From Desulfatiglans sp. (GTDB taxonomy: Bacteria > Desulfobacterota > DSM-4660 > Desulfatiglandales > HGW-15), in contig JAAZBV010000037.1 in the NCBI GenBank assembly GCA_012513605.1, positions 29,027-93,026 on the forward strand: a stretch of DNA of 64,000 bases. The letters run 5' to 3'. The notes below the pieces were generated by a model, which saw only the letters and a list, made by a program, of their open reading frames with translations, did no database searches and had not been told where the DNA came from. Within the stretch, counting starts at the first letter, position 1; each line of letters starts with the position of its first letter. Below, piece after piece: positions 11,493 to 40,588 of the stretch. Both the position numbers and the translations under genes were made by a program.

Positions 11493-11827
11493 CTTGATCC
11501 CGCTCCTTTTAAGTAAAGATATTTATCTCTCAATCATGCATGAACTAAAAATAAGTAATAATTAAATACCAGCAGGTTTATAATCTTTAATAATATTTTT
11601 TATCAATATATTTTTTTAGGGTAGTAGTAAATATTTGTGAAGTGAATGGAGGGATGGGATTTTCAGGTTGGGTTAAGCGAAGCAACCCAACGATTTTTCG
11701 GTTCAAAAAATGCCTCATCCATTGTTTTTAAGCGACCATTTCCTTTTTTCACATATTGTTAATAAACAGTTGCTTTACACCTTCCATAATTGTACAATCC
11801 AATAGTACAATTAAGCAGGAGATTAAT

Positions 11828-12058
11828 ATGAAAACAGTAGCTGTAAGTGAACTGAGAGATAATTTAATGACTTTTATAAAAAAGGTAAAGTCAGGGGAAA
11901 ATTTTATTGTAACATCAAGGGGCCATGAAGTAGCTAAACTTGTACCTGTAGAAAATAAAAAACAGATGGCAAAAGAAAGGCTTAAAGAGCTTCAAAAGAC
12001 TGCCTATGTAGGAGATGTGCTTTCCTCTGTTGATGAGGAGTGGGAGGCTTTAAAATGA
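11828..12058 (+). CDS. Type II antitoxin, Phd/YefM family
   Basis: MKTVAVSELRDNLMTFIKKVKSGENFIVTSRGHEVAKLVPV is a typical Phd/YefM N-terminus. AGGAG lies 7 nt upstream of ATG 11828. ATGA overlap with the PIN gene. Confidence 0.85.
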   Translation: MKTVAVSELRDNLMTFIKKVKSGENFIVTSRGHEVAKLVPVENKKQMAKERLKELQKTAYVGDVLSSVDEEWEALK

Positions 12059-12450
12059 TTGTTGCCGATACCCATATTATAATCTGGGAGGCATTATCTC
12101 CTGAAAAAATATCAAAAAAGGCAAAGGCTGCAATTATGGAGGCTAATGAAAATGGTGGGATTATTTTCTGTGATATATCACTATGGGAAATTACCATGTT
12201 GATGAATCGAAACAGGGTAAAGGTAGATGCCTCATACAAAGAATTCATAAATCTGTTACTCAGTTCTAATAATTACGTTTTACAGGGCATTGATCCCGAT
12301 ATAGCTGATCTATCAACAAAGATATTTAATAACACGGAAAATGATCCAGCCGATAAACTGATAGCCGCCACAGCAGTTATCAAAAAAGCCAGCCTCGTAA
12401 CAGCAGACCGGACAATGCGATCTTCATCTGAAGTTGCTACTATATGGTAG
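12055..12450 (+). CDS. vapC: PIN-domain toxin (VapC-like ribonuclease)
   Basis: MIVADTHIIIWEAL... (first acidic residue of the PIN fold) and a C-terminal DPADKLIAATAV...LVTADR, typical of PIN toxins. Confidence 0.8.
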   Translation: MIVADTHIIIWEALSPEKISKKAKAAIMEANENGGIIFCDISLWEITMLMNRNRVKVDASYKEFINLLLSSNNYVLQGIDPDIADLSTKIFNNTENDPADKLIAATAVIKKASLVTADRTMRSSSEVATIW

Positions 12451-12478: not shown

Positions 12479-13067
12479 TTAATGGCAGTATTGATCATAA
12501 TTCAAATTAATTTCTGTTATTGCAGTATCTTTGTATTTTTCGCAAGGATAAATATCAATGATTTCAAATTTTAAAATTACTGTTTCTTTATTACTATTTA
12601 CAGTATCAATGAGGAATGATTGTAGTTGGTAGGTATCTTTTAACTCAAGAATGTATTGCGAATTATTGTTTACATATAATTTAATTGTCTTTACCCTTGA
12701 GTTCTCTTTCAATGGACTCACAGATACCATAATCGGTCTTTCCTTCAACCCAAGCTATATTAAATTTCAGATCACATACATTTTCCGGTCTGTATGTTAT
12801 TCCACTATTTGTTGTTTTTAATGAAGAAGAAGCTTTTGCATTTATTGTGTTACCGCAACAATACCAGCTACAACCCTGATAATCGATTTCGTTGAGGTCT
12901 TTTTCATTTATTGGGAATTCCTGCATTATCTCCAATTTATATTCTTTATCAAGCAGCTGATGAGGTGTTAGGCTTGGATAAATAATTTTTAGATTTTCAC
13001 TAGAATATCCTTCTTTTGGTATTAAAAAGATGAAAAGAAAGATTAGAATAGTTTTTATTTTATTCAT
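12479..13067 (-). pseudogene. Secreted beta-sandwich (discoidin/NADase-type glycan-binding-like) protein split by a frameshift
   Basis: ORFs 12681..13094 and 12479..12748 overlap in different frames. The first has signal peptide MNKIKTILIFLFIFLIP and ends ...NIAWVEGKTDYGICESIE. The second continues ...ENSRVKTIKLYVNN...FEIIDIYPCEKYKDTAITEINL. The two read as halves of one domain. Confidence 0.45.
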
Positions 13068-13077
13068 AGATGGGTTA

Positions 13078-13344
13078 CTAAAGCTGCTGTGCAAATTTTT
13101 TATTTACTGAGGGATGATGATTAATGCCTAATAAACCATCAATAGAGATGTCTTCATCAAGAAGGGGCCAATGGATTCCATACCCGGAAGGAGAAATTAC
13201 ATATGAATTCAATTCTTCATCGGAGGCATCTTTAAGAACAGAAGATATCTCACTCAAAGGGAAGCTTCTATCCTTTCCATCTATTTTTATTAATAGATTA
13301 TCACCCTCAAACTTTATATTTTCTATTTTATGATACTTGCTCAT
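13078..13344 (-). CDS. DUF2442 domain protein
   Basis: 88 aa. The C-terminal GYGIHWPLLDEDISIDGLL is the DUF2442 signature as I recall it. ATGA overlap with the upstream DUF4160 gene. Confidence 0.75.
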   Translation of the reverse strand: MSKYHKIENIKFEGDNLLIKIDGKDRSFPLSEISSVLKDASDEELNSYVISPSGYGIHWPLLDEDISIDGLLGINHHPSVNKKFAQQL

Positions 13345-13598
13345 TTATTAAGCCTCCGTTGGAACTCTCCCCATTGCTCTTCTATATATTCAAAATGATC
13401 AAATATGATTTTTCTTATTTGCCTTTGGTCATTTGGAGACATATTATACGAAAATTCTTCATTAATATCAAAATGCTCTTTATCAAGCCAATATTTACAT
13501 TCCATATCGCCTTTTCTACAATGAATATGGATAGGTTCATTTCCCTCATTCGCATAGAAGAAAAGTCGCCAGCCTAAAATAGTAAGTATTGTTGGCAT
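13341..13598 (-). CDS. DUF4160 domain protein
   Basis: Start taken at ATG 13598 (MPTILTILGWRLFFYANEGNEPIHIHCRKGDMECKYWLD), the typical DUF4160 N-terminus. The ORF-track start at 13673 is an upstream extension. Confidence 0.75.
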   Translation of the reverse strand: MPTILTILGWRLFFYANEGNEPIHIHCRKGDMECKYWLDKEHFDINEEFSYNMSPNDQRQIRKIIFDHFEYIEEQWGEFQRRLNK

Positions 13599-13763
13599 AA
13601 TAATAGCCTTGTTTTCTATATCATATAATAATAAATTCAAGAATTCCGGCGATCTCGATATTTCCACTAACATCTAAAAGATGATCCGGATATTCACAAT
13701 AACATATAGAATTTTCAAACAGTTTCATGTTGAAGAATTGGAATAATAGCTACATTCAATATG

Positions 13764-13821: not shown

Positions 13822-14574
13822 CTATACCGACTTTACCAGCCTGTCAGGGCCAAATGGTTCTGCCGGAAACACCTTTGAAAATATGGGTATAGAGATTGGC
13901 TTTGCATATGACTGACCAGGTTTATAATCTGCCTTTGCAAAGGTCTTGTATTCAAGCCTCTCTATCTTCCATCCCTTGATATCTTTTACATAAGACACCT
14001 CATATACACCAGCTTCCCACCATTTTCTGATACCTTCACCCTGAAGTCGTGCCATTTTTACAAGCGTCGAATCTGAATCAATTGGCGCACCGACCTGTAT
14101 GGAATAGGTGAATATGGCCTTTGCTGATCTCTGATCAGGGGATATCTCTACCCTATCCTGCTCAGGTTTAAAATCAATCCCTGGTGCATGATTTATTTTT
14201 CTACCGGTCATCCCGGAGGCAAAACAGTTACAGAAGAGACGTTTTATACCGGAAGTGCCCTTAAAGAGCCCTCCATTAAAAACAACCTCTGCATTGTCAG
14301 TGAACATGGCTGGTATCTCACTGTACCTTCCTTTATCCAGCAGCTCTTCATATTGTTTATGAAGCACATTGATAATTTTTTCATTTTCAAGTATAGTTAT
14401 CTGTTTTGCAAGATCGTCTATATTTGTTTTTTTATCACTGCTGAACAGGGTCTTTGCATAACCCGGTACAGTCGCAGCAGCAACCGCAGACATACCGGCC
14501 CCGACCTTCCAAATAAAGGAGCGGCGGCCTCTGTCAGCCTGCATATCGTCTGTTTGAGACTTTAATATAGCCAT
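13822..14574 (-). CDS. Tat-signal NTF2/SnoaL-like protein, small partner of cassette A
   Basis: Start at ATG 14574, 1 nt after the large gene's TAA, with AAAGGAG 6 nt upstream. MAILKSQTDDMQADRGRRSFIWKVGAGMSAVAAATVPGYA is a twin-arginine signal (RRSFIWK). The mature part has an NTF2-like pattern (YEELLDKGRY...FTDNAEVVFNGG). Confidence 0.7.
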   Translation of the reverse strand: MAILKSQTDDMQADRGRRSFIWKVGAGMSAVAAATVPGYAKTLFSSDKKTNIDDLAKQITILENEKIINVLHKQYEELLDKGRYSEIPAMFTDNAEVVFNGGLFKGTSGIKRLFCNCFASGMTGRKINHAPGIDFKPEQDRVEISPDQRSAKAIFTYSIQVGAPIDSDSTLVKMARLQGEGIRKWWEAGVYEVSYVKDIKGWKIERLEYKTFAKADYKPGQSYAKPISIPIFSKVFPAEPFGPDRLVKSV

Positions 14575-14575
14575 A

Positions 14576-16357
14576 TTAAACTCCTTTCTTTTTCTTTGGG
14601 CCATAAAACTCCCTGATATTAAAGCAACCGATATGACGCCCGAGCGCCCCTACAACACCCAGGTTAACCCCAGTCGCTCCGCCTGAAAAACCAAAACCGC
14701 AGTCATGGGTAACCTTGGTATTGATCAGTTCAATCATCTGGGCGCCATTACAGGCCTCCTCATTCTGACAGAACAAATAGACACCCTCACGAAGTTTTAC
14801 ATATATACAGGGAGAACACCACTGGGCGCCCATTGTCTGGTTTGCAGTAAAGATTGTCCATGACATTGAATGGGGAGAGGTATAAAGATGCATGGAGGTC
14901 ATCTGGTCAGAGTATGACCATGAAAATGCATGACCTACCAGCTCATCTGTAAATTCATGGCGCACATACTGGGGGGGCTCAAGACCTTCCATCTCGCAGA
15001 CGCCAAAAATGGCCCTGTATGTTGTCTCATTGCCGTAATACTTTGTGCCCATATGTGAATGTATGCATGTGGTGAGACCGTTTGTAAGGTCAACAGCCAT
15101 CTTGACAGATGCACGGGGCTTGCTGTCTGTAAGCATATGAGCAAACCATGCAAGGTTATCATCCCCTTCATAGACCCGGCAAGGCTCCTCATGCCATTTA
15201 TTTTCACCCTCTTCCATATACCTGAGTTTATATTTTTCAGGAAACTCATAATGGCGCACAGGCCCACCATTGTCATAACGAAGTATAAACTTTTTCCCGA
15301 CCAGGATATCAGAATATGGCATATTGTTTATGGCCATCATCTGAGGCGCTGCACCCTCTGTGCCTCCAAATTTTATCGTATTTTTCAGGGCTGCCTCATG
15401 TACCTCTTCATCAGTCATGTATTTGAAGGTCCTTGCAGGCCTGTATGTCATCCTCTGCCATTTCCCAGGGATTGTAGGGTCACCAGGGGCCTGGTAAACC
15501 ATGCCGCTCTTGCCATGCTCATCAAAGGGTTCAAGAAAGGCAAGCTGACCCACAACCTTGCCTTCACCCCTGAACATATAGTATTCCAGTTCATCCTTCT
15601 CATTAAATCCAAGGCGAACACCAGCCTGTGTACATTCAAACAGATCACATACAAAGGATGTGAACATGCCGGAAAATTCGCACTCTGTCTTGTCATGAAT
15701 AAAGATGTGGTGATTCACACGTACATAGTCCGAAGGAGCGACATAGCTAAGGTCATCTGCCTGGCGGGTAAGATCAACAAAGTTTGTATTGGCAACAGAG
15801 GCATATAACTCCAGCACTTCATGACCAGTATCCTGCTTCCAGTACAACCCCTTGCCCTCCAATCTGTTTGTAAGATGATGAAGCTCTTTCGGGGCCTCCT
15901 GCCCTGCAACCTCAACATAACCGAAATATAACTGACGCTGAACCTCCCTGTCATCTACGACTATCGGGTCTCCGCCAAGGGTCGGCTCTGTTCTGCCTGT
16001 GGAGAGTCCGACTTCAATAACTGTTACAAGATTAGTATCCTGATCAATATATACATTATATCCCCTCTGATCTTCAGGCATCATATGAGAGAAGAAAATC
16101 ATCTGCCTGAGTGTGAGAGCGCCGTATCCCGCCTTGATCTTTTTCCCGCCATTCTCAGAGAATGTCAGCCTGTTTTTGTCATCAAACTTGTATTCAAGCA
16201 CAGGGCCATTCTGGGTGATGATCTTGATAGATTTGCCCTTAAGCACATCCGATAGATCGGATTTACTTTTTGGTCCGGCCTCGGTTGCCTTGAGGGCCTT
16301 TCCTATCTGATCTTTCGTTAATTTTGTATACTTGAATCGATGCATCGGAATATTCAT
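14576..16357 (-). CDS. 593-aa signal-less protein with four lipocalin/MoaF/PAD-like repeats, large partner of cassette A
   Basis: AAGGAGAG RBS before ATG 16357. L-x-G-K/H motifs at residues 39, 166, 352 and 473 are each followed by alternating beta-strand-like segments. No signal peptide or TM segment. Paralog of 18669..20480. Confidence 0.6.
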   Translation of the reverse strand: MNIPMHRFKYTKLTKDQIGKALKATEAGPKSKSDLSDVLKGKSIKIITQNGPVLEYKFDDKNRLTFSENGGKKIKAGYGALTLRQMIFFSHMMPEDQRGYNVYIDQDTNLVTVIEVGLSTGRTEPTLGGDPIVVDDREVQRQLYFGYVEVAGQEAPKELHHLTNRLEGKGLYWKQDTGHEVLELYASVANTNFVDLTRQADDLSYVAPSDYVRVNHHIFIHDKTECEFSGMFTSFVCDLFECTQAGVRLGFNEKDELEYYMFRGEGKVVGQLAFLEPFDEHGKSGMVYQAPGDPTIPGKWQRMTYRPARTFKYMTDEEVHEAALKNTIKFGGTEGAAPQMMAINNMPYSDILVGKKFILRYDNGGPVRHYEFPEKYKLRYMEEGENKWHEEPCRVYEGDDNLAWFAHMLTDSKPRASVKMAVDLTNGLTTCIHSHMGTKYYGNETTYRAIFGVCEMEGLEPPQYVRHEFTDELVGHAFSWSYSDQMTSMHLYTSPHSMSWTIFTANQTMGAQWCSPCIYVKLREGVYLFCQNEEACNGAQMIELINTKVTHDCGFGFSGGATGVNLGVVGALGRHIGCFNIREFYGPKKKKGV

Positions 16358-16449: not shown

Positions 16450-17598
16450 CTACTTTTCCCCTGACATCAAATTGACTATGCTGAAATATGCCTTTTTGGG
16501 CCTCATTTCACGGTCAAAGAGCAGGGGATAGTCTGTTCTCCCCGGTACAGGGAAATTATTTTTCCAGGATATGCCGTCATGCAGCCCCCAGAATGTGACC
16601 CTGCTGACCTTATCTTTATGCCTGTTAAAGATGGTGAAGATATCACTGTATCTCTTTGCCAGTTCGTCAGCGACTGATTCAGGAAGACCATCCTTATATG
16701 GATTCATCTCCTGATTATTTTCATGCCTTATACCGATATCGGCTGAGGGTGTATTCGTCCAGGGGCTGGGCAGTACAGAGACATCCAGCTCTGTAAACAT
16801 GACCTTAACACCCAGCTCTGAAAAATCCCTTATAGTGTTTTCAATCTCGATCAGTTCAGGGAATTTCATGTCCCAGTGCGCCTGAACGCCTACTGCATCT
16901 ATCCTTAACCCCTTTTCCTTTAGTTTTTTAACTATCCTGACTGCCCCTGCACGCTTTTCAGGTATGACAAGGTTGTAGTCATTATAATAGAGTTCAGCAT
17001 CCGGGTCTGCCATGCGGGCATATTCAAATGCCTTTTCTATAAACTCATCACCGGCGATTTTATAAAAACCAGATTGCCTCATGGTGCCATCTTCATTTAA
17101 TGCCTCATTCACCACATCCCATCCATGCACCTTACCCTTGTACCTTCCTGCAACAGTAAAGATATGATCCCTGATCCTGTTAAAAAGGGTCTCCTTATCA
17201 ACCTGGTCATTAGAACCCTCTTTTGTAAATACCCCTTGCCCGAGCTGGCTGTGCCATACCAGTGTGTGTCCTATCAGCTTTACATTATTTGCCTGTGCAA
17301 ATTCTGCAATCTTGTCTGCCCTTTCAAACCTGTATTGATCAAGGGCAGGATGCAATGAGCCCCACTTCATCTCATTTTCAGGTGTGACGGCGCTAAAATG
17401 GCTCTTTATCAGCTCAGAGGAAACCGGGTTATCAAGAAGCCCGGGAAAGATCGCTGCGCCAATAAGAAAATTATCCTTGTAATAATCCTTCAGCCCTTTC
17501 TCTATATCACCGCTATCCGAGGGTTTCAGATTGCAGGATAAAAAAAGTAAAAGTAAAAGAGGGCTAATGTACAGGATTACATGTTTAAGACTTTTCAT
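16450..17598 (-). CDS. Endo-1,4-beta-xylanase, glycoside hydrolase family 10, lipoprotein
   Basis: TPENEMKWG, GHTLVWHSQ, WDVVNEAL (acid/base Glu) and MFTELDVS (nucleophile Glu). The N-terminus MKSLKHVILYISPLLLLLFLSC has a lipobox. The alternative start at 17628 would add 10 aa. Confidence 0.9.
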   Translation of the reverse strand: MKSLKHVILYISPLLLLLFLSCNLKPSDSGDIEKGLKDYYKDNFLIGAAIFPGLLDNPVSSELIKSHFSAVTPENEMKWGSLHPALDQYRFERADKIAEFAQANNVKLIGHTLVWHSQLGQGVFTKEGSNDQVDKETLFNRIRDHIFTVAGRYKGKVHGWDVVNEALNEDGTMRQSGFYKIAGDEFIEKAFEYARMADPDAELYYNDYNLVIPEKRAGAVRIVKKLKEKGLRIDAVGVQAHWDMKFPELIEIENTIRDFSELGVKVMFTELDVSVLPSPWTNTPSADIGIRHENNQEMNPYKDGLPESVADELAKRYSDIFTIFNRHKDKVSRVTFWGLHDGISWKNNFPVPGRTDYPLLFDREMRPKKAYFSIVNLMSGEK

Positions 17599-17720
17599 TC
17601 TGTCTGATTTTAATATGAATCTTATCATCCTTCATAACCTGCCTTTTATATTTATTGTGATAACTGCCTATCATCCATAAAAAATATTCAGGGACAGTGA
17701 ATAAATTTGTTTTCATCCAA

Positions 17721-17893: not shown

Positions 17894-18667
17894 TTAAGCC
17901 TGCACAGGAACCAGAATCTTATCCGGGCCATTCGGCTCCCCAGGGTAAACCTTTGAAAAGGGAACTGATGATACAGGCATGGAGTATGTCTTACCCGGCC
18001 TGTAATCTGTCTTTGCCACGGCCTGATATTCCAGCCTCTTTATTTTCCAAGCGCCGTTTAATGCATCCTTTATACATGAGATATGGCATGTCCCACCTTC
18101 CCACCACCTCATGACCCCTCCGCCCTGAAGACGCGCCATACTTACCAGAACCGAATCGGAAGCCAGAGGGGCGCCGATCTGCATGGAATATGAAAATTGT
18201 GCCTTTGCTGAACCACGATCACCTGATACCTGCACCTGATCCTGATCAGACTCACAGGCATTCTCAAACCCTGGCGCAGGTGAAATCCTTTTTCCTGTCA
18301 TACCTGACCTGAAGAGACCGCAATAAAGACGTCTTAGACCGGTCTCTTTTCCTGTATACACACCACTGTTAAAGATTACCTCGCCATCATTTGAAAAGAG
18401 TTCTACCAGGGTTTCATATGCACCCCTGTCCAGTAAAGATTCATAGGTGTGATAAAGGTCATGGACTGATTTTTCATCTTCAAAAATCCTGACCCTGTTA
18501 TTTAAACGCTCCATCTCTGATTCCATGCCCTTATCTTTTTTAAAGAGAGGCACTGCGACAGCCGGAACAGCAGTGGCCAGCAGTGCTGACACAGCAGCCC
18601 CAGCCTTCCAGATGAATGACCTGCGGCCGGCATTCGGCTGATCAATGGATTTTGATGTGGTATCCAT
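17894..18667 (-). CDS. Tat-signal NTF2/SnoaL-like protein, small partner of cassette B
   Basis: ATG 18667 lies 1 nt after the large gene's TAA, with AAAGGAG upstream. MDTTSKSIDQPNAGRRSFIWKAGAAVSALLATAVPAVA is a Tat signal. Collinear with the cassette A small protein. Confidence 0.7.
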   Translation of the reverse strand: MDTTSKSIDQPNAGRRSFIWKAGAAVSALLATAVPAVAVPLFKKDKGMESEMERLNNRVRIFEDEKSVHDLYHTYESLLDRGAYETLVELFSNDGEVIFNSGVYTGKETGLRRLYCGLFRSGMTGKRISPAPGFENACESDQDQVQVSGDRGSAKAQFSYSMQIGAPLASDSVLVSMARLQGGGVMRWWEGGTCHISCIKDALNGAWKIKRLEYQAVAKTDYRPGKTYSMPVSSVPFSKVYPGEPNGPDKILVPVQA

Positions 18668-18668
18668 A

Positions 18669-20480
18669 TTATGCTCCTTTCCTTTTTGCGTTAGGTCCAA
18701 AATACTCTTTGACTTTATATTGCCCGAGGTCACGCGCAATAGCGCCGATTACGCCCAGGTTGATCCCGTCTCTGCCGCCGTGAAAGCCAAACCCATCCGC
18801 ATGCATGGTCTTATTATTTTCAATAATACATGTCTCAGCGCCATTACATGCCTCTTCAACAAGGTCAAATATGTATACCCCGTCCCTGAGTTTCACATAA
18901 ATGGCAGGCGCACACCACTGTATACCTAGTGTCTGGTCCTGCATGTAGATTGTCCATGCCGAGGAATGGGGGGTGGTATAAAGATGCATTGAGGTCATAT
19001 TGTCAGAATATGTCCTTGTAAATCCGCAGCCTACCAGCTCATCCGTAAACTCATGGCGCATGTATTTTGCAGACTGGACGCCTTCCATCTCTGCAACACC
19101 AAAGAATGCCTCATATACGACTTCATCACCGTAATAGGGAGAGCCGACCTTTGAATAAATGCATGTAGTAAGGCCGTTTGTAAGATCGAGGGCGATCTTT
19201 ACGCTTGTTGGCACTTTAATCCCGGTAAGCATATGTGCAAAGAAGAGCAGATTTTCATCAGCCTCAAATGCCCTGTAGGTCTCCTTCTGCCATTTTGAAT
19301 CACCCTCATTTTTCCATTCAAGGTTATAGGCGTCTGATACCCTGTAATTGAAAACAGGGCCGCGGTCAAACCGGAGAGTAAACTCTTTTCCTTTGAGAAG
19401 GTCACTGTATGGAAGTGTGTTGCCTCCCATCATGCCGGCCTGGGCCTGTGGGGTGTCTGGGTTATCTGTAAAGGTCACAGTCTTTGTTTCAGCAATCTTG
19501 TTTATCTCGTCCTGTGAGATATATTTAAGATTTCTGGCTGGGCGGTAAATAATCCTATCGCCGCCTTTGGGCACTTTTGGTGCAGGCTGATCAGCAGCGC
19601 CGGGTTTAGGAGCCCCAAAGCCCATATTTATCTTTTCACCGTGTTCATCAAATGGCTGAAGGGCTGTAAGGTGACCCACAACCTTGCCTTTGCCTCTGAA
19701 CATATAATATTCCAGCTCGTCTCTTTCATTAAAGCCAAGCCTCATACCTATCTGTGTTTCCGTGAACAGGTCAACAGCATACATGGTCAGTATGCCAGAA
19801 AATTCACACTCGGTTCTGTCATAGATAAACATGTTATCATTAACAAGTATATAATCTGATGTTGCACAATAGCTCAAATCATCCACATGCCTTGTCAGCT
19901 CAACAAAGTTCGTGGTGCATACAGAGGCATAAAATTCAAGGGTTTCAATGCCTGTATCCTGTTTCCAGTGCATGCCCTTACCCTGTATCCTGTTTGTAAG
20001 TCGATGTAGTTTTTCCGGTGCGGCTTTGCCAGTCACATCTACATAACCGTAAAATATCTGGCGCACTGCCTCCCTGTCATCCAGTACTATTTCGCCGCCC
20101 ATGCCTCCCTGCTTTATTCCGCTTGAAAGAGAGACATCAAATACCGTAACAAGATTGGTATCAAGGTCGTAAAACACATTATAACCCCTCTGTTCATTCG
20201 GGATCATATGAGAGAATAAAACCATCTGCTTGAGTGTAAGCGCACCATAACCGGTCTTAATCTTTTTTCCGCCGTTTTCAGAGATGATAAGCTCCTTTTT
20301 ATCCCTGAAACTGTACTCAAGGACAGGGCCATCCTTTGTAATAATCTTTAAGGACTTGCCCGAAAGAATGTCTGAAAATTCAGAAACGCATTTGGGCCCG
20401 GTTTCAGCAGCCTTGAGTTTTTTACCTATTTCATCCTTTGTCAGTTTTGTATACTTGAAACGGTGCATTGGTATGTTCAT
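18669..20480 (-). CDS. 603-aa signal-less four-repeat lipocalin/MoaF/PAD-like protein, large partner of cassette B
   Basis: First 16 residues are identical to the cassette A large protein (MNIPMHRFKYTKLTKD) and it is collinear throughout. AGGAGGAG RBS. Only 43 nt downstream of the GPH transporter stop. Confidence 0.6.
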   Translation of the reverse strand: MNIPMHRFKYTKLTKDEIGKKLKAAETGPKCVSEFSDILSGKSLKIITKDGPVLEYSFRDKKELIISENGGKKIKTGYGALTLKQMVLFSHMIPNEQRGYNVFYDLDTNLVTVFDVSLSSGIKQGGMGGEIVLDDREAVRQIFYGYVDVTGKAAPEKLHRLTNRIQGKGMHWKQDTGIETLEFYASVCTTNFVELTRHVDDLSYCATSDYILVNDNMFIYDRTECEFSGILTMYAVDLFTETQIGMRLGFNERDELEYYMFRGKGKVVGHLTALQPFDEHGEKINMGFGAPKPGAADQPAPKVPKGGDRIIYRPARNLKYISQDEINKIAETKTVTFTDNPDTPQAQAGMMGGNTLPYSDLLKGKEFTLRFDRGPVFNYRVSDAYNLEWKNEGDSKWQKETYRAFEADENLLFFAHMLTGIKVPTSVKIALDLTNGLTTCIYSKVGSPYYGDEVVYEAFFGVAEMEGVQSAKYMRHEFTDELVGCGFTRTYSDNMTSMHLYTTPHSSAWTIYMQDQTLGIQWCAPAIYVKLRDGVYIFDLVEEACNGAETCIIENNKTMHADGFGFHGGRDGINLGVIGAIARDLGQYKVKEYFGPNAKRKGA

Positions 20481-20523: not shown

Positions 20524-21951
20524 TTAAGCCTCTGCCCTTCGTTTTGAAAGGTCTTCTTCTATCTTGAGCATAACACTGCTTTTTAATGGATAGAATAACA
20601 TCACGAGCCCGCCAAGAACCCCAAAGATAGCAGGGTAAAAGCTCATTACCATTCTAATGCCAAATATTGATTCGCTTGACTGTGCGACATTTGCCACAAA
20701 CCCGTAATAACCTAATATCCCGTTTACAAAGCTGCCGCCAAAGGCAAGACCCAGTTTCAGGGCAAACAATGATGCAGCCATTATAAGCCCGGTTGATCTT
20801 CTTCCGAATTTCCATTCGCCATAATCGGCAGTGTCTGTGTAGATTGCCCACTGAAGCACAGAGACCACCCCCATAAGGAATGAAACTGCAATATTAAGCC
20901 CGAAAATCATTAGTACATTATGGGGCTGCACATAATAAAAGGCGCATGAGATCACAGCGCTGGCGATAAGCGCACCGGTATAGGCATTCTTTTTGTCCAG
21001 TGTTTTTGCAAATGACTGTGCCATAAGCGCACCCACAAGGGTTGAAGCGCTGCCAACAGATGCAAACCATTCGGTAAAAGAGCTGATTGAAAGATTTACA
21101 TTGAAGATTTCCTGTTCAAGCACATAATACTTAAAATAGTAAGGGGTAGATGTCCCGCGCATTACCGCATACAGAAGCTGAAAAACAGTTGCAATGGCTA
21201 TTATCACCCAGGGTGTGTTCTTAAAGAGGTATTCTAAATCCTTGATCGAATTTTTCTGCTGTGATTTGGGAGGCTGCACCCTCTCCTTTGTAGAAAAATA
21301 GGTGAACACAAAAAGAATGATAGCAAGCACTCCAAAGGCCACCATTGCCCAGGTCCAGCCGATCTGCTCGTTACCCTGTCCGAAATGGCCGACAAGGGTC
21401 AGGGTAAATTTTGAAACTATAAGCTGCCCTATAAATGCGATAACAAATCTGTATTGTGATGCGCTTGTACGCTCCTGCGAGTTGGGAGTCATAACCCCCA
21501 TAAGGGCAGAATAAGGGACGTTTACCGCTGTATAAAGCATCATCAGGAAGGTATAGGTTATATAGGCATAAATGATTTTACCGATGTTCCCCAGATCAGG
21601 TGTAAAGAATGTCACAACCCCGCATATAGCGAGGACAGGGGCAAGAAGAATGATATAGGGACGAAACTTTCCCCACCGGGATTCTGTCCTGTCGGCGATC
21701 ATGCCCATTATAGGGTCATTAATCGCATCCCAGATCCTGGTGACAAGAAACATCCAGAACACTGCGCTGGGGGATATGCCGAATACATCTGTGTAAAAAT
21801 ATGAGATGTAGAGCATAAACATCTGGAAATAGAGATTGGAGGCCGCATCACCAAGGCCGTATCCTATCTTTTCTTTTGCGGGTAATCTTCTGGATGATTC
21901 TCCATTTGTGGAATAACTGACGTCTGGGGTTCTAGCTTCAGAATTAGTCAT
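20524..21951 (-). CDS. Glycoside-pentoside-hexuronide (GPH):cation symporter, MFS superfamily
   Basis: GYGLGDAASNLYFQMFMLYISYFYTDVFGISPSAVFWMFLVTRIWDAINDPIMGMIADRTESRWGKFRPYIL is the canonical MelB/XynT/YicJ N-terminal signature. 12 hydrophobic segments. Confidence 0.9.
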   Translation of the reverse strand: MTNSEARTPDVSYSTNGESSRRLPAKEKIGYGLGDAASNLYFQMFMLYISYFYTDVFGISPSAVFWMFLVTRIWDAINDPIMGMIADRTESRWGKFRPYIILLAPVLAICGVVTFFTPDLGNIGKIIYAYITYTFLMMLYTAVNVPYSALMGVMTPNSQERTSASQYRFVIAFIGQLIVSKFTLTLVGHFGQGNEQIGWTWAMVAFGVLAIILFVFTYFSTKERVQPPKSQQKNSIKDLEYLFKNTPWVIIAIATVFQLLYAVMRGTSTPYYFKYYVLEQEIFNVNLSISSFTEWFASVGSASTLVGALMAQSFAKTLDKKNAYTGALIASAVISCAFYYVQPHNVLMIFGLNIAVSFLMGVVSVLQWAIYTDTADYGEWKFGRRSTGLIMAASLFALKLGLAFGGSFVNGILGYYGFVANVAQSSESIFGIRMVMSFYPAIFGVLGGLVMLFYPLKSSVMLKIEEDLSKRRAEA

Positions 21952-22229: not shown

Positions 22230-25200
22230 TTAGCCCTTCGCCTCTCTCAACAAATACTTCTCATATGCCGCCCTTACCCTCTTAATACATTCATCAAGCC
22301 TTTGAAGCAGCTTTTCTCCGTCAGCTTCAATGCCAAGCATCTTTTTTGCAAGGGTGTTTATCTCGCTCTTTTCAGCAGGGATGGTATGGGTCTGTCTGTC
22401 TTCAAGTATCTGCAGATAGTGTTCTATCCTTCTTAAGAATATGTAGTCATCCTTAATTATATTCGCAGCCTTATCATCAAAAATGGCTGCCTCTGTCAAT
22501 GATTTAATAGCAAGCAGGGTATTGCTTTCTGTCTCAAGTCTCTTTTCACAACCATATATAAGCTGAAGCCCCTGTACCATAAACTCCACATCCCTGATCC
22601 CTCCGCTACCGGACTTCACATCTATCCCTGCATTGAGCCCCTGAGAGCTGTTTTTTACTGCCTTTTTTCTCAGCCTCTCTATCTCATTAACAACCATTCC
22701 CCTTTTCCATGGTTTCATGATAAAGGGTTTAAGGCTGGAGAGGAACTCATATCCCAGCGTAATATTACCCGCAACCGGCCTCATCTTGAGGGCTGCCTGT
22801 TTCTCCCAGAATGATGCAGAACTTCGGTAATACTCTATAATGGATGGTATTGACTGGACAATCTCTCCTGAGCTTCCAAATGGTCTGAGCCTCAAGTCCA
22901 CCCTGTATGCATACCCCTCTTCTGTATGAGATGAAAGAGATGCCCTGATATCCTCAAGTATCTTCCCTGCTATCTCCCTGCGTCCGTTTCCGGCCTCGCC
23001 ATCAGGTTTAAAAACACCTATCAGATCAATATCAGAGCTGTAATTGAGTTCATTTCCTCCCAGCTTTCCAAAGGCCATAACACAGAAATAATCAAGGGGC
23101 GATGCCTCATGGGGCTCATAATCCTCTATCCTGCATTTGACAGACTGCTCAAGAACAACCTGTGTGCATGCCTCTGCAAGAATAGATAGCTCATGCATTA
23201 TTATCCTGCTCGATACGCCCATGTAAATGTCTCTTGTGCCTATCCTTAATATCTCACGCCGCCTGAACCTCCTGAGTTTGTTGAGCCAGTCCCTCTCTTC
23301 GCGGCAGCTATCAGCCGCCTTCCTGAGCTCATGTTCAAGGTCTTCCCTTTTCCTGATGGAGTTGAGAAGCTCAGGGTTCATGAGCCAGTCAAAAAAACCC
23401 GGGTATCTTATAAGGGTATCAGACAAAAACTGGCTGTTAGAAAAGATTGCCAGAAGCATCTCAAGATGCATCGGTTGAGACAAAAGAACATTGTAATGAA
23501 ACTCAGGGCTGGCAAGAGAACGTATATATCGTTCCCAGTTATTAAGGGCCATATCAGGATCAGGTGTTCTTTTTATAATGTCCCATGCAAGTATGGCAAG
23601 CCTTCCGAATATCTCCCTTCGGCTTCCACCCTCACCCGCAAGCCCCTGAAGGTTTACATAGGCCCGGGCCGGTTCCTTAATCCCGCTTTCAGATAAGATA
23701 CGGCCCCTGATCTCAGGAGACATGGTGTCAGATAGAATAACATCAGCTATTGTCCCTGTGTCATGCCTTGGGAGAGAATCGAGCCCGAAATATTTTTCAG
23801 CAAATACCCTTACTGCTGCCATATGGGTTTCAAGGTCTATATAGAGCTGCTGTGCCGGGGTTATAGCGCCGCCATATCTGTATCCCATCCTCCTTGCAAG
23901 GTGTTCAAATTCAGGGGTCTCTGTCTCAGGCAGGAAAAGATCAAGGGCAGAACCTCTAAGCATCCTGAGTCCGTTTATGAGTTCACGCATGAACCTGTAT
24001 GCCTCAGTAAGCCTGTCATGCACTTCATAGTTCATGAACCCGTTATCCTTGAGGGCATTAAGGGCATTATGAATGCTGTATGTTCGAATATCCTTCGAAC
24101 TCTTCCCGTACATGACCTGTAAGGTCTGCACCCCGTATTCAAGATCAACAAGCCCACCAGGGCTGAACTTTGCATTGAGCTTGCCCATTGCAGCCTTTTC
24201 CTTTATCTGCCTCTCTCTGAGTTCTCTTATCTCCTCAAAATCTATTCTGTTTGAGAAATAAACCACCTCATCGCGTATACGCTCTATGCGGCCTCCAAAC
24301 TCCCTGTCGCCGCCTATGCACCGCATTCTCACAAGTGAGAGCATCTCAAATGAATGTGCTTGACCTCCTGTGCCGTAATACTGGCAGTAACTCTCCATGC
24401 TGACCGCAAGAGGGCCTGATTTACCATGGGGTCTAAGCCTTAGATCAATCTGAAATATGCCCTCTCGCTTTGCCTCAATAAAATGGAAAATACCCCTGAC
24501 CATGAGTTCAAAAAACTCGGTATTTGTAATATTTTTTTCACCATCGGTTCTGCCCCTGTCGCTGTAAATAAAAAGGATCTCAAGGTCTGATGCATACCCT
24601 ATGGCCTCCCCTCCCAGCTTGCCAAGGCCCATAATGGCATATCTCGCCTCCAGGCCGGAATCGGTCTTTGGGATACCGTACTGCCTGACAAGATCCTCAT
24701 ACACAATATCAGCGGTCCTGTTTATAACAAGCTCTGCCAGTGCTGTAAGTTTTCTTGAAAGGAACCTGAAATCCAGGTCAGGGTTAAGGATATGGTCAAG
24801 ATCAATACGAAATATCTCCTGATCCTTGAACCAGTTTAAGACCCTCTTTTTTGACTCAAAATCCACAGCCTCATCAATTGCCTTATCAAGCCTCTCAGAT
24901 AGATTTTCTGTTGATTTGCTGATCATTGTCTTCTTTTCTACGTTGTCGAATACGGTCAGAAGTGATTCGTACTGAAGCCTGATAAAATCCTCCCACAAAA
25001 AATCGCTTGCGCCCAGGAGCCTTGCAAGGTCCTTAAGGTTTCTCCCGTCAGTAAGGTGCCTGAACCACTCTTCCCTGAATGGCTGTTTGACGATATCCTT
25101 TATAATAAATTCAAAACGTGAAAGTGCCGCATATGGGTCAGGGGCCTTTGCAAGAAAATAGGTAAACTGCTTTGTAAGCAGCACAGAGAACTTGATCCTC

Positions 25201-26018
25201 TCGATTGCATCCCTGTCTTCAATCTTACCTCCGCCCGCGTCTGTAAGGTCAAGACTGTCTTCAACCCTACCGTGAAAGGTGCGTATCCTCACATGCTCAA
25301 TCTGAATGCTGTTAAGCGCGAGGGCATTTGAAAGGGCATACATAAATGCTGGCGTATCCTGTGAAACAACCTTAAGACGTGTGAACGGGCCTGACTCATT
25401 ATCAACTGCAAGCTCCACAGGATAGAGTACAGGCTCTGCCCCCCTGTCCATGCGTGCAAGGTGACGAACAACCATCTCATTGACCCTGTTTTTTGCATTC
25501 ATTATTGCTTCTTCCGCCCCGTTTTCCAGCATGGATATTATGGACATGAGTCGGTCATTAAACTCCTGCGACCAGGCCTCAAAGGAAACAGATCTGGTAA
25601 GGTATCCGGAAAAGAAGTCTACAATCATCCTCCTGTCATGCTGATCAGGCAGGATAAAAAACCTTTCTTTGTGCGACCTTCTTTTTTTTATTTCCATTTC
25701 CTTACGTTCATAGGTGTAGACATCGCCTGACACTATATTAAAACCGGTCCCGGACAAAAGACCAGCTATCAATGAAAACTCAGAGGGGTAATCAAAAGCA
25801 GTTACAGTGCATTCAATATTGTCATCACGTGTTTTCACAATACTGGTCTGTACAGGGTTTGATTTCTTAAGGCTTGAAATAAGCCTGATATGGGAAATGA
25901 CATCAGCTGTAATGAATTTTTTATAATAATCATCACCGAGACGATCAAGATGCTCTTTAATTATCTTTTCATCAACCCCGGGGAGTTCTTTTAAAATATA
26001 ATCAAGTTCTGGTTTCAT
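22230..26018 (-). CDS. glnE: Glutamine synthetase adenylyltransferase/adenylyl-removing enzyme with long N-terminal ACT-like extension
   Basis: Two nucleotidyltransferase cores (GLGKLGGEAIGYASDLEILFIY / FQIDLRLRPHG and AFGKLGGNELNYSSDIDLIGVF / YRVDLRLRPFG). 1262 aa, about 300 more than classical GlnE. Confidence 0.9.
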   Translation of the reverse strand: MKPELDYILKELPGVDEKIIKEHLDRLGDDYYKKFITADVISHIRLISSLKKSNPVQTSIVKTRDDNIECTVTAFDYPSEFSLIAGLLSGTGFNIVSGDVYTYERKEMEIKKRRSHKERFFILPDQHDRRMIVDFFSGYLTRSVSFEAWSQEFNDRLMSIISMLENGAEEAIMNAKNRVNEMVVRHLARMDRGAEPVLYPVELAVDNESGPFTRLKVVSQDTPAFMYALSNALALNSIQIEHVRIRTFHGRVEDSLDLTDAGGGKIEDRDAIERIKFSVLLTKQFTYFLAKAPDPYAALSRFEFIIKDIVKQPFREEWFRHLTDGRNLKDLARLLGASDFLWEDFIRLQYESLLTVFDNVEKKTMISKSTENLSERLDKAIDEAVDFESKKRVLNWFKDQEIFRIDLDHILNPDLDFRFLSRKLTALAELVINRTADIVYEDLVRQYGIPKTDSGLEARYAIMGLGKLGGEAIGYASDLEILFIYSDRGRTDGEKNITNTEFFELMVRGIFHFIEAKREGIFQIDLRLRPHGKSGPLAVSMESYCQYYGTGGQAHSFEMLSLVRMRCIGGDREFGGRIERIRDEVVYFSNRIDFEEIRELRERQIKEKAAMGKLNAKFSPGGLVDLEYGVQTLQVMYGKSSKDIRTYSIHNALNALKDNGFMNYEVHDRLTEAYRFMRELINGLRMLRGSALDLFLPETETPEFEHLARRMGYRYGGAITPAQQLYIDLETHMAAVRVFAEKYFGLDSLPRHDTGTIADVILSDTMSPEIRGRILSESGIKEPARAYVNLQGLAGEGGSRREIFGRLAILAWDIIKRTPDPDMALNNWERYIRSLASPEFHYNVLLSQPMHLEMLLAIFSNSQFLSDTLIRYPGFFDWLMNPELLNSIRKREDLEHELRKAADSCREERDWLNKLRRFRRREILRIGTRDIYMGVSSRIIMHELSILAEACTQVVLEQSVKCRIEDYEPHEASPLDYFCVMAFGKLGGNELNYSSDIDLIGVFKPDGEAGNGRREIAGKILEDIRASLSSHTEEGYAYRVDLRLRPFGSSGEIVQSIPSIIEYYRSSASFWEKQAALKMRPVAGNITLGYEFLSSLKPFIMKPWKRGMVVNEIERLRKKAVKNSSQGLNAGIDVKSGSGGIRDVEFMVQGLQLIYGCEKRLETESNTLLAIKSLTEAAIFDDKAANIIKDDYIFLRRIEHYLQILEDRQTHTIPAEKSEINTLAKKMLGIEADGEKLLQRLDECIKRVRAAYEKYLLREAKG

Positions 26019-39709: not shown

Positions 39710-40588
39710 ATGATGAAAAGGGTACAGAAATGGGCCATTGTAGCAGGTTTGTTTATGACTATTGGGTTCAGCGCTTCTTATGCCTCTGCTCAAACCGAAT
39801 GCACACGGGATAATTTAAAGGCCATCACAGGCCAGTTTTTAGCATCCATTGAATCGCACAAACCAGCGGACGCTCCCCTTGCCTCAAATGCAAGGTATAC
39901 AGAAAACGGCTTAGATGTGGCAACAGGCAAGGGCACATGGGAGACAGCAGGAAAGGTGATCTTTAAACGAACAATGGTGGATACCAAAAAATGTGGTACA
40001 CACACCCAGACTATTATCGAGGAAAACGGCAAGCAGATCCTTTATGGTATAAGGCTCAAGGTGGAAAAAGGCAAGATATCAGAGATAGAGGCCATTGTTG
40101 TGAGAGGCAAAGAGGTACTTGATACCAAGGCCATAATGGATACAGTAAATCAGGACTGGGAAGACCCCCTTCCGCCCCAGCAGCGCAGCTCCCGCCTCGC
40201 AATGATAGCGGTAGCAGATGATTATTTTGAACTGTTCGTAAAGGATAAAAAGCGTGTGGTATCTGACCTGGCCTATTCAGGCTTCTGTGACAGATGGGAG
40301 AACGGCGCAATAACAACAAAGGGTGGCATGAACCAGAATGTTATAATGCCCAAGCATGACTGCTCACCAGAGGGTTTTGCCGACATGACCGAAACCCATG
40401 GCAAGAGACGCTTTCTTGTGGATGAGGAGACAGGTGTTGTTGTTGCCTATATGCTCTTTAATAATTCATGGCCTGATTTCCATATGTTCAAAATTAATAA
40501 TGGCCTTGTTGTATGGATCCAGGCATATTTTGAATACAGCAAGACATATAAGACCATGGGTTGGCCTGATGAGCCTGCGTGCGAATAA
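39710..40588 (+). CDS. Secreted hypothetical protein
   Basis: 292 aa. Signal peptide MMKRVQKWAIVAGLFMTIGFSASYASA, with a CAGGAGGG RBS. No family recognised. Confidence 0.6.
   Translation: MMKRVQKWAIVAGLFMTIGFSASYASAQTECTRDNLKAITGQFLASIESHKPADAPLASNARYTENGLDVATGKGTWETAGKVIFKRTMVDTKKCGTHTQTIIEENGKQILYGIRLKVEKGKISEIEAIVVRGKEVLDTKAIMDTVNQDWEDPLPPQQRSSRLAMIAVADDYFELFVKDKKRVVSDLAYSGFCDRWENGAITTKGGMNQNVIMPKHDCSPEGFADMTETHGKRRFLVDEETGVVVAYMLFNNSWPDFHMFKINNGLVVWIQAYFEYSKTYKTMGWPDEPACE

Follow-up and report, generated by a model that had tools for sequence, protein, structure and literature searches.

Phenolic acid decarboxylases (PADs) are cofactor-free enzymes for p-hydroxyphenyl substrates; they are cytoplasmic homodimers with one β-barrel of ~160-180 amino acids (aa) per chain, and catalysis proceeds via a quinone-methide intermediate. 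The MoaF domain family has a name but no assigned function; a solved example is a protein of ~280 aa from Burkholderia cenocepacia (PDB 4q51). Here we describe a doubled, four-barrel form of MoaF encoded on a 64,000-nucleotide (nt) stretch of DNA from Desulfatiglans sp. (GenBank assembly GCA_012513605.1, contig JAAZBV010000037.1, positions 29,027 to 93,026; hereafter the window), together with a small NTF2 protein whose gene directly follows it. The window contains two paralogous pairs of such large and small subunits, each with its two genes kept together. The doubled form is strongly conserved, at ~60-70% identity across phyla, and the module is multi-copy in genomes of sediment, soil and digester bacteria, providing a concrete two-gene unit and thereby a handle on what MoaF domains do.

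Heteromeric complexes in which a signal-less subunit hitchhikes on the twin-arginine translocation (Tat) signal of its partner are established, for example NiFe hydrogenase-2 (HybO/HybC). NTF2 proteins include LdpA (formerly LsdE), a diarylpropane lyase of Novosphingobium aromaticivorans and Sphingobium SYK-6 (PDB 8abt-8abw), which without a cofactor converts the lignin β-1 dimer erythro-DGPD to lignostilbene and formaldehyde via a quinone methide (PMC9942872). LdpA is a homotrimer joined through an extended C-terminal arm, and no second subunit is mentioned (PMC9942872). In the N. aromaticivorans enzyme (NaLdpA), the His97-Asp40 acid-base dyad of motif I is essential by mutagenesis, motif II is a Glu143-Tyr165-Gln170 triad, and Tyr35 and Tyr147 provide the oxyanion hole (PMC9942872). 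Our literature searches returned nothing on a doubled MoaF architecture, on its pairing, or on NTF2 proteins combined with Tat hitchhiking.

Four-barrel architecture of the large subunit

Two genes of the window encode the large subunit:

14576..16357, minus strand: large subunit A, 593 aa, a MoaF_N-MoaF_C unit in tandem (x 2), without signal peptide
18669..20480, minus strand: large subunit B, 603 aa, paralog of A

The two proteins share 58% identity over their full length, and a metagenome-assembled genome of Desulfatiglans sp. encodes a hypothetical protein with 100% identity to large subunit A. The MoaF annotation is already public ('MoaF N-terminal domain-containing protein') and the fold membership is not new; what we add is the internal organisation. 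Large subunit A is a head-to-tail duplication of a two-domain MoaF unit, consisting of a MoaF_N and a MoaF_C barrel, and since this two-barrel unit is doubled, the chain comprises four small β-barrels of the MoaF/phenolic acid decarboxylase (putatively calycin) fold class. The barrels, whose borders are approximate, are as follows:

15953..16252, minus strand: barrel 1, ~residues 36-135, MoaF_N type, LKGK at 39
15509..15952, minus strand: barrel 2, ~residues 136-283, MoaF_C type, divergent, LEGK at 166
15038..15328, minus strand: barrel 3, ~residues 344-440, MoaF_N type, LVGK at 352
14603..15037, minus strand: barrel 4, ~residues 441-585, MoaF_C type, LVGH at 473

Profile searches assign the protein to the MoaF family. 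Pfam MoaF_N (PF10703) matched large subunit A in three stretches (E=1.1e-22, 80.4 bits, gathering cut-off 23.3). MoaF_C (PF17409) matched it as well (E=2.7e-8, 34.0 bits, cut-off 22.1), and in large subunit B scored 20.8 bits, slightly under the cut-off of 22.1; no NCBIfam model matched the large subunit. When the quarters were scanned alone, MoaF_N was recovered in quarter 1 (E=7e-7, 29.5 bits, at residues 36-117) and quarter 3 (E=1.1e-8, 35.4 bits, best stretch 344-436), and MoaF_C in quarter 4 (E=1.4e-8, 34.9 bits), which also scored slightly below the cut-off with MoaF_N (E=2.4e-4, 21.4 bits). Quarter 2 alone had no Pfam match and was assigned by hhalign, which aligned it with the C-terminal part of single-unit MoaF (E=1.2e-18). 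Against the same profile, built from 16 single-unit proteins of ~250-300 aa, the N-terminal half gave E=9e-36 and the C-terminal half E=3e-62, with quarters 1 to 4 covering MoaF positions 10-110, 109-258, 5-112 and 113-257, respectively. In a sequence search of the PDB, 4q51 was the sole relative, aligning to residues 334-564 (E=5.5e-8). The large subunit has in common with this protein the L-x-G-[KR] strand-1 motif and an N-terminal R-x-W/F...LT-x-E-E helix. Unlike 4q51, it doubles the unit in one chain, and its second barrel lies below Pfam detection. It also has an NTF2 subunit with a Tat signal as its partner.

The duplication is also evident from internal comparison. Self-BLAST of large subunit A gave two alignments, residues 4-73 against 307-387 (E=9e-6, 32.5% identity) and residues 145-225 against 451-533 (E=5e-6, 24% identity). 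From the family alignment of 113 homologs we then made a profile for each half and each quarter. Between the two halves, hhalign found a match over 194 columns (35-238 versus 348-546; probability 98.5%, E=2.2e-15); it also matched quarter 1 to quarter 3 (E=4e-12), as well as quarter 2 to quarter 4 (E=8.6e-8). No significant similarity was found between quarters 1 and 2, and quarters 3 and 4 aligned over only 16 columns around the motif (E=2.3e-3), indicating that the N-type and C-type barrels are related only marginally at the sequence level. A conserved R-x-F-K-Y segment stands ahead of each half, together with a helix; barrel 1 comes after a nearly invariant N-terminus, MNIPMHRFKYTKLT, and a helix at residues 15-27.

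An AlphaFold2 model of large subunit A, computed from the 113-sequence family alignment (mean pLDDT 90.3, pTM 0.88), contains four β-rich units of about eight strands each, with strands at residues 43-148, 169-272, 356-456 and 476-579; within the barrel borders given above, the strands of barrels 1 and 3 span 43-117 and 356-436. One helix lies ahead of each half (15-27 and 316-325), the second of them in a low-confidence linker (273-343) before barrel 3, in which confidence is low at ~273-305 and 332-342. Barrel 4 carries a conserved EEACNG at 533-538. In a Foldseek search of the PDB with this model, the best match was MoaF 4q51 (E=1.5e-13, target TM-score 0.78, root mean square deviation 3.2 Å, 260 columns), the second a 103-residue protein (5hal, E=9.5e-4), and then PADs (8adx, 8a85, 2gc9, 3nad, 4uu3) with probability 1.00, E-values of 6e-3 to 2e-2 and target TM-scores of 0.48-0.52. 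The original prediction, made from the sequence alone, had suggested a tandem MoaF-like duplication with four barrels per chain and likeness to MoaF and PAD, and Pfam, hhalign and the predicted structure all support it. A single non-repetitive fold is ruled out by the hhalign repeats and the four-unit model.

PADs (2p8g, 2gc9, 3nad, 4uu3, 8adx) and the barrels of the large subunit thus belong to one fold class (Foldseek TM ~0.5), with one barrel in the former and four in the latter. Sequence similarity between them is not significant. Pfam PAD matched neither the whole large subunit nor its quarters, hhalign found no significant match between quarters 1-3 and the Bacillus subtilis enzyme (BsPAD), and its best alignment, of quarter 4 with B. 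subtilis PadC (E=1.3e-3, probability 18%; PadC sequence checked against 2p8g), is too weak for residue mapping. This weak alignment pairs PAD residues E64, R41 and Y11 with E533, Q512 and Y492 of the large subunit; we take the catalytic set of BsPAD to be Tyr11/Tyr13/Arg41/Glu64 in its own numbering.

The feature from which the original prediction had started, an L-x-G-K/H motif at residues 39, 166, 352 and 473, stands. In large subunit A the pattern L-x-G-[KH] occurs at these four sites only, against a mean of 0.40 expected from 20,000 shuffles of the protein (P(≥4)=6.5e-4), and the four-fold recurrence is real and non-random. Each motif immediately precedes the first strand of its β-rich unit, and a distant relationship of the N- and C-type barrels would account for the presence of this strand-1 motif four times in the chain. 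The strand-like segments that had been quoted after the motifs correspond to predicted strands at 53-58, 63-68, 180-185, 367-374/377-382 and 487-494/497-503. Across the 113 homologs the four sites are kept as [LI]-x-G-[KRHT]; no variation is seen at G168, G354, L473 and G475, and conservation reaches at least 90% at L39, G41, K42, L352 and K355. The paralog had been said to share the same four motifs, which is true of their positions and not of the literal pattern: large subunit B has a strict L-x-G-[KH] only at 39 (LSGK) and 362 (LKGK), and its two other homologous sites read IQGK (165) and LVGC (482).

Pairing with a Tat-signal relative of LdpA

Directly downstream of each large-subunit gene lies the gene for a small subunit:

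13822..14604, minus strand: small subunit A, an NTF2/SnoaL_4 protein with Tat signal and C-terminal arm, listed open reading frame (ORF) of 260 aa
17894..18739, minus strand: small subunit B, an NTF2 protein with Tat signal, listed ORF of 281 aa

The two small subunits are 47% identical, and both match Pfam SnoaL_4 at ~1e-11 (small subunit A, E=1.2e-11). Small subunit A carries a twin-arginine motif (GRRSFIWK) followed by a hydrophobic stretch ending GYA. Conservation was counted in 89 homologs, in which the family motif is G-R-R-S-F-x-W-K with the arginine pair present in 88, and the TIGR02811 TAT model matched the small subunit weakly (E=1.4e-3). LdpA is its closest solved relative by a wide margin: phmmer aligned residues 59-257 with the LdpA chains (8abt-8abw) at E=1.4e-21 and 28-32% identity, and Foldseek gave E=3e-15 and 32% identity, with the best match other than LdpA at 8.5e-7. 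As in LdpA, the small subunit keeps a C-terminal arm, which ends in ...FP-x-x-P-x-GPDRL. LdpA differs in being without a Tat signal, its alignment beginning at chain residue 9 opposite small-subunit residue 59, past the signal. For NaLdpA residues that are essential by mutagenesis, a single pairwise HMMER alignment gives the following correspondence:

NaLdpA Y35: small subunit A Y85, Tyr in 77/89
NaLdpA D40: small subunit A D90, Asp in 75/89
NaLdpA E143: small subunit A E197, invariant
NaLdpA Y147: small subunit A Y201, Tyr in 73/89
NaLdpA Y165: small subunit A Y219, Tyr in 80/89
NaLdpA H97: small subunit A F145, Leu/Pro/Val/Ile/Phe in 82/89
NaLdpA Q170: small subunit A K224, Lys/Arg
NaLdpA H183: small subunit A I237, Ile/Val

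The small subunit is therefore a relative of LdpA that, on this alignment, lacks the His-Asp dyad, and we do not class it as LdpA.

The arrangement of the genes indicates that large and small subunit are translationally coupled. The stop codon of large subunit A (TAA, 14578..14576) is followed after 1 nt by an ATG at 14574, and a ribosome-binding site (AAAGGAG, 14587..14581) lies 6 nt upstream of this ATG, within the last codons of the large-subunit gene. This ATG, corresponding to M11 of the listed ORF, is most likely the true start of small subunit A, giving a protein of 250 aa; the M11 column is conserved in at least 90% of small-subunit homologs. In pair B, coordinate arithmetic, rather than a reading of the sequence, places a probable ATG at 18667, 1 nt past the stop codon (18669..18671).

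To place the window among its relatives, we fetched 77 related loci from reference genomes (labelled L001 onwards), which include Desulfatiglans, other Desulfobacterota, Acidobacteriota, Gammaproteobacteria including Steroidobacteraceae, Bacteroidales, Sedimentisphaerales and Chloroflexota. The small subunit lies directly downstream of the large subunit in 62 of them, with a modal stop-to-start gap of 1 nt (17/52 scored pairs), and many of the genomes have 2-5 copies. Pairwise distances of the two proteins correlate at r=0.80, a value reached by 0/2000 Mantel permutations; the subunits co-diverge. The large subunit is the better conserved (mean identity 63%, versus 48% for the small subunit). 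The pairing of the large subunit with a Tat-signal LdpA-like NTF2 protein is thus obligate-looking, and we consider it very probable that the architecture and the pairing, taken jointly, are as described here.

Predicted function

The hydrophilic and nearly invariant N-terminus of the large subunit (P4 M5 H6 R7 F8...) has no signal. As in HybO/HybC, the twin-arginine signal is confined to the small subunit, and the large subunit, itself without a signal, is encoded alongside. The two systems differ in that their folds show no relationship, the present pair has no evident cofactor, and its co-export is a prediction. Our most likely reading is that the module encodes a Tat-exported, cofactor-free periplasmic enzyme. 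Assembly of the two subunits would take place in the cytoplasm, from where the large subunit would be carried to the periplasm on the Tat signal of the small subunit, hitchhiking as in NiFe hydrogenases. LdpA forms a trimer through a C-terminal arm of this kind, and by analogy the complex may have the composition (large-small)3.

We tentatively propose that the complex could be a cofactor-independent acid-base enzyme of the lyase, decarboxylase or hydratase type, whose substrate would be a small hydrophobic or phenolic compound derived from the plant cell wall, and we regard this assignment as possible rather than probable. It is suggested by three lines of evidence. First, 90 positions of the large subunit are invariant in the 113-sequence alignment, and while most are glycine or aromatic residues, about 30 are His, Arg, Asp, Glu, Lys or Cys (for example H6, R7, H91, E225, E227, H407, H467, H490, E534 and C536); a mean identity of ~63% between phyla and up to 5 paralogs per genome are likewise enzyme-like. 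Second, the nearest characterised relatives of both subunits, LdpA and PAD, are cofactor-less enzymes that act on p-hydroxyphenyl compounds via quinone methides. Third, the window has a xylan context, in which the two pairs form part of a co-directional minus-strand block in the order MFS_2, large subunit B, small subunit B, GH10, large subunit A, small subunit A:

20524..21951, minus strand: MFS_2 transporter of the glycoside-pentoside-hexuronide type (Pfam E=1.8e-90), first gene of the block
16450..17628, minus strand: GH10 endo-xylanase (Pfam Glyco_hydro_10, E=4e-99), between the two pairs, as also in L001-L004, L006 and L040

The N-terminus of the xylanase, ending ...LLLLFLSC, looks like a lipoprotein signal, which would put the enzyme in the cell envelope, with the membrane separating neither it nor the predicted Tat-exported complexes from each other. 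In this Desulfatiglans window the complex would act downstream of the GH10 xylanase, and the MFS_2 transporter would import the products. If the substrate is indeed phenolic, the module would point to an anaerobic, cofactor-free periplasmic route for lignocellulose-derived aromatics.

A narrower version of this proposal would see a four-barrel subunit resembling PAD, together with an NTF2 subunit that resembles LdpA and is co-exported with it by Tat, as an O2- and cofactor-independent periplasmic lyase or decarboxylase for phenolic dimers of lignin or lignin-carbohydrate complexes (e.g. β-1 dimers or diferulate-type cross-links on xylan fragments). We consider it a long shot; if true, quinone-methide chemistry would allow anaerobes such as Desulfatiglans, Acidobacteriota and Bacteroidales to break cross-links of lignocellulose in the absence of O2.

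Several observations weigh against an exported cofactor-free enzyme. The catalytic His97 of LdpA is replaced across the small-subunit family, and therefore LdpA-type catalysis cannot be assumed; nor can the catalytic residues of PAD be mapped onto the large subunit with confidence, given the hhalign probability of 18%. An adjacent small subunit is lacking in a clade with 44-51% identity (L055, L058-L060, L074), in three acidobacterial loci (L011, L016, L019) and in L047 and L048. These large subunits keep the same signal-less N-terminus, and the existence of such a clade therefore implies that the large subunit can apparently work alone, in the cytoplasm. Tat export could equally well reflect a bound metal or cofactor. 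The xylan context is limited to the Desulfatiglans clade (~10 loci), and among 132 + 87 flanking proteins from ~60 diverse loci, Pfam revealed no dominant neighbour family besides the small subunit. Finally, we found no experiment or literature on the function of any MoaF-domain protein. Among the 77 loci, L038 also shows no small subunit, but its DNA ends ~360 bases past the large-subunit gene. In L053 and L055 a different SnoaL_4 gene adjoins the large subunit.

The alternative that survives best, though we think it fairly unlikely, is a non-catalytic periplasmic carrier, in which hydrophobic molecules such as lipids, sterol- or hopanoid-like compounds or aromatics are bound in the four barrels and the NTF2 cone, to be sequestered or shuttled across the periplasm. 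Lipocalins and numerous proteins of the NTF2 class work in this way, calycin folds and NTF2 cones being classical binders of ligands, and a carrier would fit the loss of the catalytic histidine of LdpA, the lack of an assigned catalytic motif, and the TonB-dependent receptors and transporters among the frequent neighbours. However, the presence of some 30 invariant residues that are charged, His or Cys, and a mean identity of ~63% across phyla, are more typical of an enzyme; E197, the equivalent of LdpA E143, is invariant; and for both subunits, the nearest relatives in fold that have been characterised are enzymes. Even as a binding complex alone, the module would remain an unusual case of Tat hitchhiking by proteins without an evident cofactor.

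The interleaving of the pairs with GH10 in the window, in a block headed by MFS_2, also raises the possibility of a new type of carbohydrate-active enzyme that removes or modifies xylan side groups, or cleaves glycosidic or ester bonds, in the xylo-oligosaccharides released by GH10 before their import by MFS_2. The same block recurs in L001-L004, L006, L010 and L040, in some cases with a NAGPA-type glycosidase, L034 has a GH-like protein and a β-helix protein downstream of the pair, and a ROK kinase and Sugar_tr transporters occur in other loci. Such an enzyme is nevertheless unlikely, as GH10 is present in ~10 of the 77 loci, all of one clade (MFS_2 is present in 11), most loci have no carbohydrate-active neighbour, and we know of no glycosidase precedent for either fold.

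Tat substrates are often cofactor enzymes, and a metal- or cofactor-containing redox enzyme would be a further explanation for the signal, the cofactor being inserted in the cytoplasm, where His and Cys residues that are invariant in the large subunit (H6, H91, H407, H467, H490 and C536) would serve as its ligands. Genes for an aldehyde:ferredoxin oxidoreductase (AFOR) and a Tat-signal Fe-S protein adjoin the pair in L006, L010, L041 and L076. We doubt this explanation, since Pfam and NCBIfam scans detected no known cofactor-binding motif or domain, the solved relatives (4q51, the PADs and LdpA) are neither named nor described as cofactor enzymes, and hitchhiking of a signal-less partner suffices to explain Tat export.

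A role in molybdenum cofactor (Moco) biosynthesis, suggested by the name 'MoaF' and the title of 4q51 ('putative molybdenum cofactor biosynthesis protein F'), rests on that name alone and is rejected as highly improbable, as no Moco-biosynthesis genes lie beside the module in the window or the 77 loci, a periplasmic location would not suit cofactor synthesis, and the 'moa' of MoaF presumably refers to the Klebsiella monoamine regulon.

Genomic neighbourhood

The commonest accessory gene encodes a secreted family of ~340 aa ('c2'), which adjoins the pair in 14 loci (L012, L018, L022, L028, L030, L031, L033, L041, L054, L055, L061, L067, L070 and L076) and has the N-terminal pattern C-D-R-x-C-L…Y-x-x-A-L-x-A-H-D-P…T-E-N-G. 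Neither Pfam, NCBIfam nor the PDB contains a relative of it, and it does not detectably resemble the small subunit. The window itself contains a distant copy:

39710..40588, plus strand: 24%-identical copy of the ~340-aa secreted family

Other neighbours include TonB-dependent receptors (near the pair in L022 and L037), carboxylesterases/BD-FAE, β-lactamase-type esterases, TPP enzymes, aldehyde dehydrogenases and URO-D-like proteins. Aldehyde-enzyme, esterase and transporter genes each occur in only 2-5 loci, and we did not use them to deduce a mechanism. The AFOR gene and its 4Fe-4S subunit with its own Tat signal, found in the four Desulfobacterota loci given above, may hint at periplasmic aldehyde oxidation, and an Fe-ADH is encoded nearby in L010, L052 and L073.

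Immediately after small subunit A, the window carries two compact cassettes of two genes each (11756..12450 and 13078..13673), which encode a PhdYefM antitoxin with a PIN toxin, and DUF4160 with DUF2442; related loci carry other genes in their place. Two overlapping minus-strand ORFs of 137 aa and 89 aa (12479..13094) may represent a frameshifted gene, since the 137-aa ORF matches the NADase_transloc F5/8-type-C domain only over its start, positions 1-56 of a 146-position profile. Upstream of the block, a minus-strand gene (22230..26018) encodes a GlnE-type adenylyltransferase of 1262 aa, a length that exceeds that of typical GlnE; residues 853-1254 contain its best matches to GlnE and GlnD_UR_UTase, and each of the two families has a second matching stretch.

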